From a virus (lineage: Duplodnaviria; Caudoviricetes), in the IMG/VR virus record IMGVR_UViG_3300042390_000830, positions 1,982 to 65,981 of that record: DNA of 64,000 bases. The stretch is one strand, 5' to 3'. This document shows positions 33,001-39,000 of the stretch, piece by piece (the stretch's first letter is position 1; the number at the start of each line of letters is the position of its first letter). The position numbers are program-made.

Positions 33001-36000
33001 GCTTCCAGCTTGGCGGTGTTGACGCGGCGGCTCAACTCCAGACCGGTCGCTTTACGGAAGTAGGTCAGCTGACTGTTGATCGAAGGCTTCGACATACCGG
33101 TGGCGGCGTGAGCAGTTTCAACTACGAAGGTGCTGGACTCGCCGTTTGCGATGGCGGTCAGGCAGAGGTCCCAGACGTAACGGGCGCCGGTACCTTGACC
33201 AGGAAACGCGATTTCGACGCCGTTCAGCAGAACCATTTCTTTCTGGGCGCGGTTGGAAACGACTTCTTCAGCGGCTTGGGTGTTTTCGGTAGTGTCCATG
33301 ATGATTCTCCAAATAAATACAGGGGTTACAAACTTTGCAAGGTATCTTGCTGGTGTGGACTCATTATGCGCCTAGGCGGTAGGCATGTAAATAGCTAAAG
33401 CAGTCTTTTTTAAAAATAATTTAACCGAAAGGAATAAGACAACATTGAGCCATCAACGATCAAAAAGGAATGTCAGGTTCGTACGCGGCGCAACCAACTT
33501 GTGCTATACGCAACGGAGGCGTAGATTTAAAATGACGGCAGACGTTTTCATCTAGGTCTAGCCGAGTACACGAGAAGCACGACTTATGCTGCCTCGCGAA
33601 TGCGGTAAGCAAGTCGGTTATGTCAGACAACTCAATGAACTTTTGTGGCTGTGAGGTAGTTGTCATGCTGGAGTCTCCTGATAGGTTTGACTAAGTATCT
33701 CTGGGTACTTATCTTTAAACCAAACGCGAATGGACACTGGCTTCTGCAGCTCAGCCTTGCGTCCTAAGAAGTCGTCGCACGTGGCAGGACAGTTATCCAG
33801 GCCGGTGTTTGCCTTCCACCAATCTACGGCCATCTTACGCGCCGAGCCTTTATGCTCAAAGCACAGCCAAGTGCTGTAAGTAGTCAGACCGCAATGGTAC
33901 ACTGCCCGAATACTTGGCGACTTGCCTTGCTTTTGATAAAGAGAGAAGCCCACCATATCTACCGGCAGTTCCCTCACGTCCAGGGCCTGTGGCGCTCCAG
34001 GCTCCATTCCGGCAATAGCAGCTTGCTCGGAAGAGCCTGCGTAAACTTCAAGCTCCGGCGGCGGGAACTGATGTCCGCAGTCGTCGCACTCTTTTGCTCG
34101 AGTAGCGCAGTAACTGTCACACACCGGACAAATCTTGCAAGGAGGTGCGTCGCTACCTCCGCCCTTCTTTTTCTTTCCCGGAAGTTTGGGGTCGTTGATT
34201 GGGCCAAGACGTAAAATGTTAGACGCGAAGTCTAGCACCAGACATCCGTTGGCTTTGATACCTGCTGCTATTGCCGCTAGGCGACCGATTATCGTCGATA
34301 GGTCGAACCCTGGGGCAAACACCGGTCGAGTGCCCCGCCCAAGAATTTGGATATGCAGCGAGACAGACTTGGTGGGCCGCATTAACACCAGCATATCGAT
34401 GTTTGGCATGTCAAAGCCCGTCGTCAAACAGCCCATATTTACAAGCGCTCGCGTGTTACCATGCTTAAACTCATGGATTGCCTCTTCTCGCTGGCCTTTC
34501 ATTTTGGAATGCACAACGCCAGTGCGTATGCCCATATCGTTTAGAATTTCTGCGATATGTGTTGCGTGCTCGATGGACGCAGCAAAGATCAACCACTTCT
34601 TTCGGTCTGAGCCTTTTGCGATCATCTCTTTACAGCATTCAACCGTTGTGGCATACTGGTCAACAGCCCCAGCCAATTGCTTAAGGTTGTACTCGCCGGC
34701 CACTTCGCCAACTTGCGACAAGTCAAACTGCGTGCTAGTTGCTTTGGTTGTCAGCTTGGCCAAGTAGCCTTCATTGACAAAGCGCAAGAACGTTTCCTTA
34801 CTGGAAAAGTCACACGCAACATGGTTAAAGAGACCACAGTCGAGAAGGTGGCCCCCCTTCATACGGAAGGGCGTAGCAGTTAGACCAATCACTACTAGCT
34901 TTGGGTTTGCTTGCCGCAACACGTCAATAGTCTTTCGGTAAAGAGTTTCGCCCGACATAGGAATCATGTGGCACTCGTCGATAATAACAATCGACGGATT
35001 CTCTACCTCGTGCGCGACTGACGCAAACGACTGAACGCCTGCCACAATAGTTCGGCCCGTCAGGTCTTTTTGTTTAAGACCAGACGAGAACAACGACACA
35101 GACGCGCCCGGCCACACCCACTTAATAGAGTCGTAGTCTTGCTGCACTAACTCTTGTACGTGAGTAAGTACAATTATTTTTCCTGTGTTTGGCCAATTGG
35201 CAAACACGTCGCGGATAATTAGACCAAGTAACGAGGCCTTGCTCGTTAGTGCCCCCAGCTGTTACCGGCCGGGGGCAAGATGACCCGTCCCTGTGGGAAG
35301 GATCAGCATCGGATTGATATGACACGACCGCTCCGCAAACGCTTGCCAAAGCTTATTGACAGCTGCGTCCTGATAATCGCGCGGTATAAACTTGCCCTTA
35401 CTCATGATGAATACCTTCAATAATTGTTTTCTTTTGTTCCAGCGTCATATCTCGAGCGCGAATGCACTCACCGCTTGGAAAGGTGTACCAATCCGACTTG
35501 GCTAAGTTGTCAGCTTCAGTCAATAGCTGTAAGTTAGTGTAGTGGTTCAAACGAATAGCCGACGCCTCGTCGTACGCAACTGCCATCGGAATGATATGGT
35601 CAATGACATAGCCTTCTGGAATGCCGTCGGCTATTTTCAAATGTGCAGCAACTACTTCAAAGGTAGCCCCCAGTATTTCGTGAGAACGACTTGCTTTGTT
35701 ATAGCCTAGGCGTTTAAAACTAGAAGCTACTGTTGCACGAATTCTGTCGCTAACCTGATATTGCAAATCAGTTGCGCGCCTTTTGTCTCTGTTATTGATG
35801 TTAGCTGTGCGTATTTTTTGTCTGCCTTCTTCAGTAGACCTTACGTCGCTAATGTGGGCCTGAATGCGCAGTCTAATTTCTGGGTCTGCGTAGCGGCGAG
35901 CGTTTTTGCTTTTAATTTTGGCGCGGCCTGCTTCAGTAGAGTTAATATCCTTTTGATTTCCGTTTGTGCAAGAGCGACACACCTTTCCCTTTGCGGTGCC

Positions 36001-39000
36001 GTTTGGACCACGCATATCTGCCCATTTGGCCTTGTCAGAAGTCTTGCCGCAATGTTTGCAGATTTTAATCGGCTGGTTCATTTGAACTCTCACATAAGTA
36101 TACCGCCATTATATCACGTAATGGCGGCTGTACGCCTTTATTTACAAGCTAATTGATATAATAATGTCACTTGGCTTAATAAATGCTGCATGCTTGCTAT
36201 AGGCTCCACACGGATTGTAGCAATCGATGTCAGTTGCTCCGCTGTAACTGCAAGTCCACGTTCCGTTACAAGCTGGCTCGGAATGCGCGCACGTCCGGCA
36301 GTTGATGTCCGGCTCTTCTCCTCTGTGCCAACACACTGGACGAAAATCGCACATACGGCAACGGTAGTCAGTAGACGACAACGCAACACGTTCAGGAACT
36401 GGACCGTAGACAATCTCTTCGCCCTTAGCCAACAGGCTGTCGGCAAAAGCCTCATCAAGAATAACCCACTCAGAGTAGAGAGCATCGGTATTCTTGTTGA
36501 CAGCCATAAAAAATGCGCGCTTGGTGTTTGACTTGCGCATGTACTGATGCACTTGGCCCCAATACACAGGCTTGGACTTTTGCAGTCCATGTTTGAGAAT
36601 GTCGGCAAATGCTTTTTCGCCCATTGTCTTAAACTCAGCAACTACCCACTCGTTAGGGTACTCGACAAAGCCAATTGCAAAGGCGTCAAGTGAACCGCCA
36701 ACGTGGCCGTTTGCGTGACTAAAGCGGAACTGCTGACCGGTATCCGGATGCGTGTCTTGTACGGTTACGCCGGCAGAGCGAAGAAACTCAACAAACCGTT
36801 CTTCGTAGCGGTTGCCCGTGTCAAACAGCCGAATAATGCGAGGCTCAAAGTTTGGTCGAAGCGTCCAGCGAAAGCCAAGCCAAAGCTTTTTCCAGCATTC
36901 ATCACCGATTTGCGACATACCCAAATGGGACCGGAACGGCGGCGTAATCCGCTGCCGCGATACCGCTTGGAATGTGGCCTGAAAGTTTTCAATCAGGTTT
37001 TGCGTGGGCGTCATTACGCAGTCCTCGGTTAGTTTGTTTTATGCGAAAGCCATTGTAACGCATAAAGGTGTCCGAAGACACCTTTATTTTGCTGCTGAGG
37101 TTAGCCTAGTTGCTGTCGACGTTATCAGCAGGAGCTGGCGCACTTTCGGATGGCTGGGCATTTTGCAGCAGCTCGCGCAGCGCAGGAGAAACCTGCGGGT
37201 TAGTCTGCCAGCTTTCCAACGGCGGCTTGCTGTTGTCTTGCGGTTCGGCTGAATCGGCGACAACTTCGCCAACAGCTTCTGGCCGCGTATTGACGGCCAC
37301 GAGCTTCTTGTCGATAATAGCGGCGTAACCAGAAATGTCGTGCCAATGATCGCTGAAGTTCGGATCACCGTGAAGGATGCGGGCAATCTTTTGGCTGATG
37401 ACGCGCAAAGCTTCTTTTTGACCAGGATGCAGCTGCTCCCAATTAGGAGTTGCGTGCATTACTGCCTCGATGTTTTGACCGGTAACTGCGCCGGCAAAAA
37501 AGTCGCCGTGCACGTTGTTGCGTTGGATAAGCGTTTGGTTAACGTCCACGGCTCAATTCCTCATTAACAATTTTGATGGCTTGATGGCACTGCTCAACGG
37601 TAAACCAGCCCCAATGGCACGAGCTTTTTGGTATGTTCATTGCAACAGCAAGTGTAGCATAAACTGTTGCACGATGTGCTTTTAATTTGACAACAAGCTC
37701 GGTAAACAGTTGCTTACCGGTCGACCGAAGCTTACGCAGTTCTGCGTTGGCAAGCGTTCCCATTGGAAGATCAGTGTCTGCGTGCACAGAGCAATAGGCG
37801 TCGCAGTTTTGACAAGCAAATGCAAACGGCCAATCGCCTACGGACTTGCTATAAATCTCGCGGTTATTTACTAGCTTAACACGTCCGCCGCAGTAAGGAC
37901 AGCTACTAACCATCGGGATGTAGTCTTTTACGCGCTTTAGCGCCGTTTGACTTATATACGGAAGTGGCGAATCTTTGGGCAAAGGAACAACCCAATAACT
38001 CGGCGGCACAACGTTAAGAGTAGATAACTCTGGAAGGTTATTCATTTTCTCTCCAGCAGCCCTTGACAGTGAACGCAGCGCTTGCAGCCCGGAATGGCCA
38101 CGCGACGTTTTTCCGGAATATCGCAACCGCAGCTAACGCAATATAGCTCAGAAACTCCAGAGTAAACGACGCGATTGGACAGCGTTGCCTCAAGAATTAC
38201 TTCTTGCATCTCAGACGATTGGTCAATCTCACATGCCGACATTTATATAGCTCACAGTTATATTAAAGGAGCGCAGCAGGTTGTCAGCTGCGCGTTGCGA
38301 CTCAGCCCAACGGCCTTGAGCCAAAGGGTCTAACGGTTTTGAAACTACTTCGACTACTCGGCCGCTACCCACAATGGCCATGGCACAGTGAAGGCACGGG
38401 AACTCCGTCACGAACAAGGTTAACTCGCTACCCTTACTATTAGCAAGAGCGTTTGGCTCTGCGTGGCAGACAAGGTAGTCGCTGTTCCTTGGATTGATCG
38501 TAATGTCGTCGATGCAAGGAGGTGCACCATTATACCCCGTACCTACTACGCGGCGGTGCTTATCTACTAGCGTTGCGCCGACCTTTTTTTCTTCTTTGGA
38601 CCAGCTGCTAACGTGAGCAGCAAGACCCATGAACCGAAGTTTCCAGTGCTCGTTCATTTGATTATTCCTTAAACCACAGCTAAAAAATATACGCCGTTTT
38701 TTAGGCGGCGTATATAGTAATCATGTAACTTTTTGAAACTTACCAGGGTTGTACTGGGTTACCTGCTGCGTCTACGGTCGCCTGTGGCGCGTCCTGTTGA
38801 GCGACGGAGGTAGCCTGTACATCTACCGCAGGGGAGGCCTCTTGCGCGACAGGCGCGACGGTTGGCGCGGCAGGACGAGCTACAGGAGCTGCAGGGGTGG
38901 CAGGACGAGCAGGCGCGGTTGGAGTCGCAGGTTTTGCGCCTGGAGCCGTTGCGGCGCCGGTAGTACCAGCACCGACAGCACGGAAAGCAGCGATTTCGTT

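Follow-up and report, generated by a model that had tools for sequence, protein, structure and literature searches.

A hairpin insert at the Walker A codons of a phage helicase gene: a likely translational bypass element linked to an HNH endonuclease gene

How could a phage make an intact helicase from a gene whose Walker A codons are split by a non-coding hairpin, and what does the endonuclease gene next to it have to do with that hairpin? These questions are raised by a locus in a tailed-phage genome (Duplodnaviria; Caudoviricetes). The window, by which we mean the whole stretch of 64,000 nucleotides (nt) that was analyzed, spans positions 1,982 to 65,981 of IMG/VR record IMGVR_UViG_3300042390_000830, and takes in almost the whole of a virus contig of 65,981 bp, for which CheckV gives a completeness of 100%. 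On the minus strand of the window, a superfamily 2 (SF2) helicase gene of the RadD/phrog_16 type is interrupted by 42 nt of non-coding DNA (35241..35282) between the glycine and lysine codons of the Walker A motif (P-loop), and a freestanding HNH endonuclease gene (35398..36093) ends on the helicase start. Comparison with related sequences leads us to consider it likely that the insert is a translational bypass element, passed over by the ribosome, and the HNH gene may be its partner in a homing cassette.

The first helicase coding part (35283..35405), recognized from its translation and its homologues, comprises codons 1–41, ends in LPTGTG and on its own matches the phrog_16 DNA helicases (E = 6.5e-4). 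Beyond LPTGTG the same frame reads HLAPGR and then stops, at an in-frame TAA (35264-35262). Once the 42 nt have been passed, the original helicase frame resumes with KASLLGLIIRDVFANWP... and remains open for 525 codons to 33663. This second coding part (33663..35240; 525 residues, from KASLLG to the stop) matches phrog_16 (E = 7e-73) and Pfam Helicase_C (E = 6.3e-16), in addition to ResIII and DEAD, keeps its DECH box and helicase C domain intact and is 63–71% identical to full-length homologues. All 12 closest full-length homologues have an uninterrupted PTGTGKASLLG or a one-residue variant of it, with G38, G40, K41, A42 and S43 invariant among them, and a DNA alignment with six insert-less relatives leaves a clean gap of 41–42 nt. 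The insertion is confirmed as real rather than a chance feature; its boundaries could be moved by up to 2 nt with the Gly-Lys junction preserved. The helicase ATG (35405-35403) and the HNH TAA (35400-35398) share the overlap ATGAGTAA, read from the sequence at 35398..35405, and the insert begins 123 nt after this ATG. An earlier note, made from the sequence alone, had described the HNH gene as overlapping the helicase start and the insert as lying about 120 nt away, and both descriptions are borne out.

A second helicase allele carries an insert at exactly the same Gly/Lys junction. A search of IMG/VR by exact peptide words returned no close helicase relatives, and an alignment-based scan of IMG/VR was used, which gave a set of 32 helicase loci. 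Two of these, L006 and L007, show no difference across 8.4 kb and so represent a single phage; their insert is 41 nt long, and the helicase frame downstream of it is, like that of the window, open for at least 525 residues. A pattern allowing any insertion of 30–60 nt at the helicase site found only the L006/L007 phage in IMG/VR. A metagenome scan with a strict helicase-type pattern returned 66 loci, all of them terminator-like or chance matches by eye and none in a P-loop. Among GenBank phages, DNA similarity to the helicase was limited to two weak matches, one in Pseudomonas phage POR1 and one in Sphingomonas phage Kimi. As a side observation, two helicases from Logan contigs, P0008 and P0013, start at MIIRD and may carry an insert.

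The insert has a G+C content of 67% (hand count) and folds into two hairpins. Hairpin 1 (35250..35277), supported by folds (z-scores of −3.9 and −2.4) and by covariation, has a 10-bp G+C-rich stem with a TAA in its apical loop. Hairpin 2 (35229..35248), supported by folds, is formed by the 3′ end of the insert together with the first codons of the second coding part and leaves the lysine codon AAG in its loop. The 26-nt hairpin core, for which no occurrence is expected by chance, is found once in the window and has no exact match in IMG/VR. L007 retains both hairpins with a different sequence: AGT replaces TCG as its serine codon, with a matching alteration at the 3′ end of the insert, a comparison for hairpin 2 that involves two sequences only. 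For hairpin 1, L007 and the 29 terminase inserts introduced below preserve the stem through compensatory changes. The consensus hairpin comprises 16 pairs, nine of which show double changes against 2.8 in shuffles, and none of 500 shuffles reached the observed values; paired cells amount to 95.1%, against 43–54% (maximum 53.6%) when the partner column is slid.

According to the bypass that we propose, ribosomes would translate helicase codons 1–41 and stall with peptidyl-tRNA-Gly on GGU (take-off codon GGT, 35285-35283), with the stable hairpin a few bases downstream. The GGU codon would then be released and 42 nt passed over, the peptidyl-tRNA would re-pair through two of three bases with AGC (landing triplet, 35241-35243), and decoding would resume at AAG, so that the product would be a helicase with an intact PTGTG-KAS Walker A motif. 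Because the two helicase inserts are 41 and 42 nt long, read-through cannot account for both alleles, and the same holds for any one fixed frameshift. Three variants of the route were considered and rejected: landing on an in-frame GGG in the 3′ arm of the hairpin would separate Gly from Lys by 4–6 extra residues, a take-off from the Thr codon would put Ser in place of an invariant Gly, and re-initiation finds no start codon before the Lys codon.

Further evidence for this interpretation comes from terminases. Scanning for a hairpin together with its 3′ context revealed the same kind of insert in the terminase large-subunit gene of locus L036, where it again separates the Walker A Gly and Lys codons (VPKKNG/KSTLLAG). 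Among 80 terminase relatives of L036, five have a P-loop insert, 74 are uninterrupted and one is not evaluable. A stem-pattern scan of IMG/VR yielded 70 loci, 42 of which are terminase P-loop inserts (30 recognized by regular expression and 12 by eye), and the two sets combined contain 29 distinct terminase insert sequences. These are 46, 47, 48, 49, 50 or 51 nt long and cover all three reading frames; the in-frame classes that were viewed by eye, of 48 nt (L036/L107) and 51 nt (L244, L234), carry a stop codon.

The final triplet of a terminase insert tracks the codon that precedes the insert. The pair is GGC..GGC in most, with GGC..GGT, GGT..GGC, GGY..GGA and GGG..GGT in others and GGC..TGC once; in four loci where the insert lies one codon upstream, the pair is AAT..AAC, followed by GGN AAG. 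The middle base of the pair matches in every instance and the differences fall mostly at the wobble base, the helicase pair GGT..AGC belonging to the same two-of-three class as the terminase GGC..TGC. Codon tracking with a constant middle base is predicted by re-pairing of a peptidyl-tRNA, and is predicted neither by splicing nor by a decaying target-site duplication. The stem of the terminase inserts has the third base of the take-off codon as its first position, and some of these inserts, unlike others, have AAGGAG or AGG 5–6 nt before the landing site. With these related inserts, whose last triplet matches the preceding codon, the analogy to bacteriophage T4 gene 60 that the earlier note had drawn for the insert is strongly backed.

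The same triplets bear on a different route, in which the insert is removed at the RNA level, for example by an endonuclease and a ligase or by a polymerase that skips the hairpin. In favor of this route, the hairpin is stable and flanked by short repeated triplets, and even with an inexact repeat a junction can be drawn that restores Gly-Lys. Splicing, however, gives no reason for triplets that track each other with a fixed middle base and wobble changes. The insert is also far below the size of group I or group II introns, it matches no Rfam family at E values up to 10, and the window contains no tRNA genes. We regard removal from the RNA as improbable.

Bypass has its own difficulties at the helicase locus, and we list them here as weighing against it. 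In both helicase alleles the pair GGT..AGC matches at two of three bases, which leaves a first-position mismatch to the Gly anticodon. The codon after take-off, CAT in the window and TCT in L007, is neither a stop nor a rare codon; the stop lies six codons past CAT in the window and one codon past TCT in L007. The helicase hairpin starts 5–6 nt past the take-off codon, unlike those of the terminases, and the Shine–Dalgarno (SD)-like element is loose, consisting in both alleles of a run of five G 8 nt before the landing triplet. In addition, no RNA runs carrying the window stretch were listed.

A further explanation is that a palindromic insertion has left the helicase gene dead, with nothing to restore it. 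The in-frame stop and the lack of a start codon for a product that includes the Walker A lysine would both be expected of such a gene. We consider this very improbable, as the 525-residue frame downstream is undamaged and conserved in two lineages with helicases that share 70% identity, both hairpins are preserved by compensatory changes, and the source contig is rated as complete. The same architecture, with frames open on both sides, also recurs in the 29 distinct terminase large-subunit sequences; the terminase large subunit is essential for packaging. Nor does the insert look like an assembly or sequencing artifact. The window allele is represented by one assembly, and the only other DNA evidence for it is one Logan contig (X1), possibly from the source sample. 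Against this stand the identical 41-nt inserts of the L006 and L007 contigs, which have differing record names, and the dozens of terminase examples from many different records, which make an artifact next to inconceivable.

The terminase inserts also indicate how such elements are distributed. Inserts identical at 46 of 47 positions occur in terminases that are just 80.7% identical, and relatives that are 90% identical have no insert; because near-identical inserts sit in diverged terminases and are absent from closer relatives, sequence comparison indicates that the terminase inserts move horizontally. A run of eight A (seven in L173) occupies the Lys-Lys-Asn codons before take-off in all 25 distinct terminase alleles with a Gly take-off codon, and in none of 48 distinct insert-less alleles (loci L187-L255; 12 nt before the insert). 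It is either a flank that is carried along with the insert or a part of the signal. At a second terminase site, AADR/EQASIIY, about 30 codons past Walker A, a different 46-nt hairpin has the pair CGG..CGA and a TGA in its loop (L168-L171 and L174; in L170 at 4087-4135). As this site lies outside Walker A, hop-like inserts are not confined to P-loops.

Among the matches listed (at least 120) from a genome-contig scan with the terminase-type stem, a script recognized no terminase P-loop insert, and with that no prophage or host. GenBank phages gave no DNA match to an insert-bearing terminase, the best protein identity being 43%, and no cultured phage or host with such an insert was found. Separately, we noticed that the 3′ end of the window insert and the five exon bases after it (..ACGAGC AAGGC; region 35229-35297) closely resemble the internal 3′ end found in many terminase inserts (..ACGAC AAGGC, followed by the Lys codon). 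From this likeness it looks as if the element had moved between genes, taking a few exon bases along.

Taken together, we find it rather probable that these inserts form a second widespread, mobile phage family of programmed bypass elements. Its members would be G+C-rich hairpins of 41–51 nt with matching flanking codons that favor the Walker A Gly/Lys junction of terminases and helicases, use other sites too, and can pair with a homing endonuclease as a self-protecting cassette.

That last property concerns the helicase locus, where the insert and the HNH gene occur together. The genes around the insert all lie on the minus strand, in the order Cas4-domain exonuclease (36142..37014; PHROG phrog_1990, E = 9.9e-82), HNH open reading frame (ORF) and SF2 helicase. 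In the IMG/VR loci without the insert, the Cas4 gene directly precedes an uninterrupted helicase gene and there is no HNH gene. L006/L007 have an HNH gene in the same intergenic slot as the window (26–27% identity), with TAATG overlaps at both ends. The co-occurrence test proposed in the earlier note gives complete linkage at the helicase locus, both parts being present in the window and in 2/32 loci and both absent in 30/32 and in an additional contig, X6.

Two close comparisons show how the parts come and go. In the helicase tree L007 is sister to L004 (97.4% amino acid identity, support 100/100), and of these two only L007 has the HNH gene and the insert; both helicases are approximately 70% identical to that of the window, and the two carriers are separated by non-carriers. 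On the window side, X6 (record 18) comes from a run labeled RNA-Seq that was rated as probably DNA, and was used as DNA only. It is 94% and 97% identical to the window on the two sides of the site and only about 82% identical in Cas4; it has no 42-nt insert, and it has 210 letters where the window has 931, hence no HNH gene. Since L007 and L004 on the one hand, and the window and X6 on the other, differ in both parts, these alignments show that the HNH gene and the insert were gained or lost together at least twice, with clean boundaries.

The HNH ORF encodes 231 residues from a GTG at 36093 or 227 residues from an ATG at 36081. Its product combines a zinc ribbon (CxxC...CxxC) at the N terminus with a DH...N...N motif at the C terminus, and has 718 relatives; across an alignment of 10 of them, D161, N183 and N192 never vary and H162 hardly does. 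Pfam HNH_4 matches five of these 10 relatives (best E = 3.5e-5); the window protein itself reaches only E = 0.54, and no Pfam family matches it at E = 0.01. Structural comparisons were not decisive: an AlphaFold model with a predicted local distance difference test (pLDDT) score of 82.9 had no Foldseek match at E = 0.001 or better and gave VIA-align Z-scores of at most 5.2, including Hpy99I (4.5) and BrxU (3.9), and a profile search of the PDB returned only Cas9 HNH domains (E = 0.12). On motif evidence, the assignment of this 227–231-residue ORF as an HNH nuclease is moderately supported.

The best PHROG match of the window protein is phrog_1035 (E = 1.3e-7), which is annotated as 'endonuclease VII', and the insert is a near-perfect inverted repeat. 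Both features would fit a structure-specific, endonuclease VII-like enzyme that acts on the palindromic insert DNA and mobilizes it in the manner of repetitive extragenic palindromic (REP) elements and their transposases. We think this quite improbable, given that no such HNH gene lies near the related terminase inserts and no hairpin insert lies near 80 relatives of the HNH gene.

A homing role for the HNH protein, with the insert as its immunity part, is a plausible proposal to which we give a little less than an even chance. The HNH gene sits between the Cas4 and helicase genes and is coupled to the insert both physically and in evolution; the mobile unit would most likely consist of the HNH gene, the 123-nt first coding part and the insert, and would behave like the T4 mobA/gene 60 cassette. 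In a mixed infection, the nuclease would cut or nick uninterrupted helicase alleles near the P-loop codons, repair would copy the unit into the cut allele, and the genome that carries the unit would be immune, its target being split by the insert.

Sequence differences around the junction give a hint of where such a nuclease might act. Between the window and X6, all four T-G-T-G codons next to the insert differ synonymously, and just upstream only 3 of 101 bases differ. Between L004 and L007, 5 of 15 bases differ in the five P-loop codons before the junction (hand count), against approximately 14% elsewhere, and the differences include a Thr-to-Val replacement; among the homologues, Val in the loop is found only in L004 and P0010. 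Variable P-loop codons in cassette-free relatives may thus hint at a nuclease target site. The 100 nt between the HNH gene and the insert are 78% identical between L004 and L007, against 85–88% in the flanks, which fits co-conversion from a donor. As a separate observation, the uninterrupted P-loop coding sequence of L004 (597-625), whose product has an unusual PVGTGK motif, folds on its own into a perfect hairpin of 13 bp (−27.5 kcal/mol, z = −4.3); this may represent either an escape allele or a site for the nuclease.

Also in favor of a cassette, the site is a known hotspot. The 905-residue helicase relative P0115 carries an intein with LAGLIDADG/Hint domains at PTG/TGKS, two codons upstream of the insert site, which agrees with the earlier note's view of this site as a niche that inteins usually occupy.

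Several findings run counter to homing with the insert as its immunity part. The coding part of X6 between the HNH slot and the insert site is 97% identical to that of the window, more than the rest of the genome, which a simple model of import of this part with donor sequence does not predict. The HNH gene and the insert are just 123 nt apart, and linkage alone predicts their joint inheritance. The terminase inserts occur without a dedicated nuclease: an HK97-type HNH gene lies about 1.1 kb upstream in 4/5 insert-bearing terminase loci, and also in 27 of the 29 insert-less loci that have at least 2 kb of upstream sequence (hand count), and relatives of the window HNH protein were absent from those terminase loci. 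Conversely, 80 IMG/VR loci with HNH relatives contain no such insert within 3 kb. The split-ORF hairpin detector recovered five of six positive controls, missing L173, and flagged four of these 80 loci (L404, L413, L425 and L451), which by eye were intergenic terminators or the start of an ORF. In the L007 phage (L106, 1438-2826), another HNH paralogue, of 187 residues, lies 110 nt upstream of a gene for a Sak4-like ATPase with an intact GLSGAGKT loop; the window homologue of that ATPase gene (39673-40380, minus strand) has no adjoining HNH gene. Finally, two Logan contigs of 63,096 nt (P0123/P0241) and 64,274 nt (P0124/P0010) probably each combine an HNH relative with an intact helicase.

These observations would also fit linkage without functional coupling. 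On this view the insert would be a hop element in its own right, selfish or regulatory, and the HNH enzyme an ordinary freestanding homing endonuclease that targets another site or is protected against by point changes, the two traveling together only through their 123-nt proximity. Its support comes from the spread of terminase inserts without a nuclease of their own, the 0/80 result at the HNH-relative loci, the L007 paralogue beside an intact P-loop gene and the two possible HNH-plus genomes with an intact helicase. It does not sit well with joint gain or loss in two separate lineages with clean boundaries, or with the concentration of synonymous changes at the P-loop codons of cassette-free relatives. 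A freestanding nuclease must, moreover, protect its own genome, and the insert is the only disruption of a conserved site nearby. We hold linkage without coupling to be unlikely, though still a serious contender. What stands of the two-part mobile cassette described in the earlier note is the linkage of HNH gene and insert at the helicase locus; an obligatory two-part element it is not, because the insert and the HNH relatives each occur without the other. Bypass combined with an HNH homing and immunity cassette is the best explanation of the locus as a whole, with chances that we put at about even.

Elsewhere in the replication module to which this locus belongs, the minus strand has a dCMP deaminase-like ORF and several small zinc-ribbon ORFs (38229-38657 and 37539-38126).

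The bypass element is a more important result than the cassette, because a large family of natural variants comes with it. T4 gene 60 and its topoisomerase relatives make up the one phage family in which efficient hopping over tens of nucleotides has been documented; outside it stand a 10-nt candidate in the terminase of one Streptomyces phage and the byps of yeast mitochondria. A second phage family would test how general the features of the gene 60 mechanism are, and the present one offers about 30 natural variants that cover all three frames, use shifted take-off codons and have no stop after take-off. If our interpretation is true, gene 60 would no longer be isolated, and dozens of natural variants of the hop signal would become available for study. 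It would further identify the most strongly conserved codons of phage ATPases as a landing site that three kinds of selfish element have in common, namely inteins, homing endonucleases and hop inserts. A practical point for annotation is that some terminase and helicase genes called truncated or split could be complete after all. The helicase locus, for its part, is a compact system of about 0.9 kb for testing a hop insert as the immunity half of a homing cassette.

A search of open-access full text found no description of hairpin inserts of this kind in print, and four known systems invite comparison. For gene 60-type cassettes, Manning and Atkins describe dozens of known examples, all in topoisomerase genes of Myoviridae. 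In these the take-off and landing codons form a pair, take-off is usually followed by a stop or rare codon, and a stem-loop at take-off and a mini-SD are present; the nuclease has been lost in some of them (10.1101/2022.08.31.505936). Our locus resembles T4 gene 60/MobA in its short non-coding gap (50 nt in T4, 41–42 nt here), its stable stem-loop, its location in the gene of an essential enzyme and its adjacent HNH gene. Both systems also vary in presence among close relatives and include orphan cassettes without a nuclease, and the wider family found here shares matched or wobble-matched take-off and landing triplets, some with an SD-like stretch.

There are differences from T4 as well. The host genes here encode an SF2 helicase and terminases, interrupted at Walker A, rather than a topoisomerase; no stop or rare codon follows take-off, and the helicase landing site matches at only two of three bases. 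In contrast to the T4 MobA element, the HNH gene here is intergenic and does not split a gene, and no N- or C-terminal extensions are encoded by the element. The insert is also widespread here without any nuclease. A tblastn search with 10 members of the HNH family against T4 bases 1-7000 detected no similarity (best E = 0.045), a weak test of MobA homology in that T4 mobA is a pseudogene.

The location is matched in the terminase of Streptomyces phage Hau3, for which a 10-nt UUA block is reported to be bypassed at GWG/KD, with the junction peptide detected by mass spectrometry in E. coli and blocks of this type present in only three of 100 terminases (PMC10732093). The block lies at the same Walker A Gly/Lys junction. 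It differs, within what that text covers, in its 10-nt gap, its rare UUA trigger, the lack of a long G+C hairpin in the gap and the lack of a described nuclease partner. In the mitochondria of Magnusiomyces capitatus, the 'byp' elements are numerous short inserts in coding genes that form hairpins and appear to be mobile; their take-off and landing codons match, and the take-off codon is followed by a non-decodable codon. They differ from our family in residing in a eukaryotic organelle and in having no known nuclease partner. This yeast case is mentioned in two articles (PMC10732093 and 10.1101/2024.12.09.627546).

Inteins and freestanding homing endonucleases, lastly, share with the hop inserts the niche of conserved ATPase motifs, as the P0115 intein two codons away illustrates. 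Inteins, in contrast, are translated and remove themselves from the protein, whereas the inserts described here contain a stop codon or shift the frame and must therefore be skipped before or during translation.

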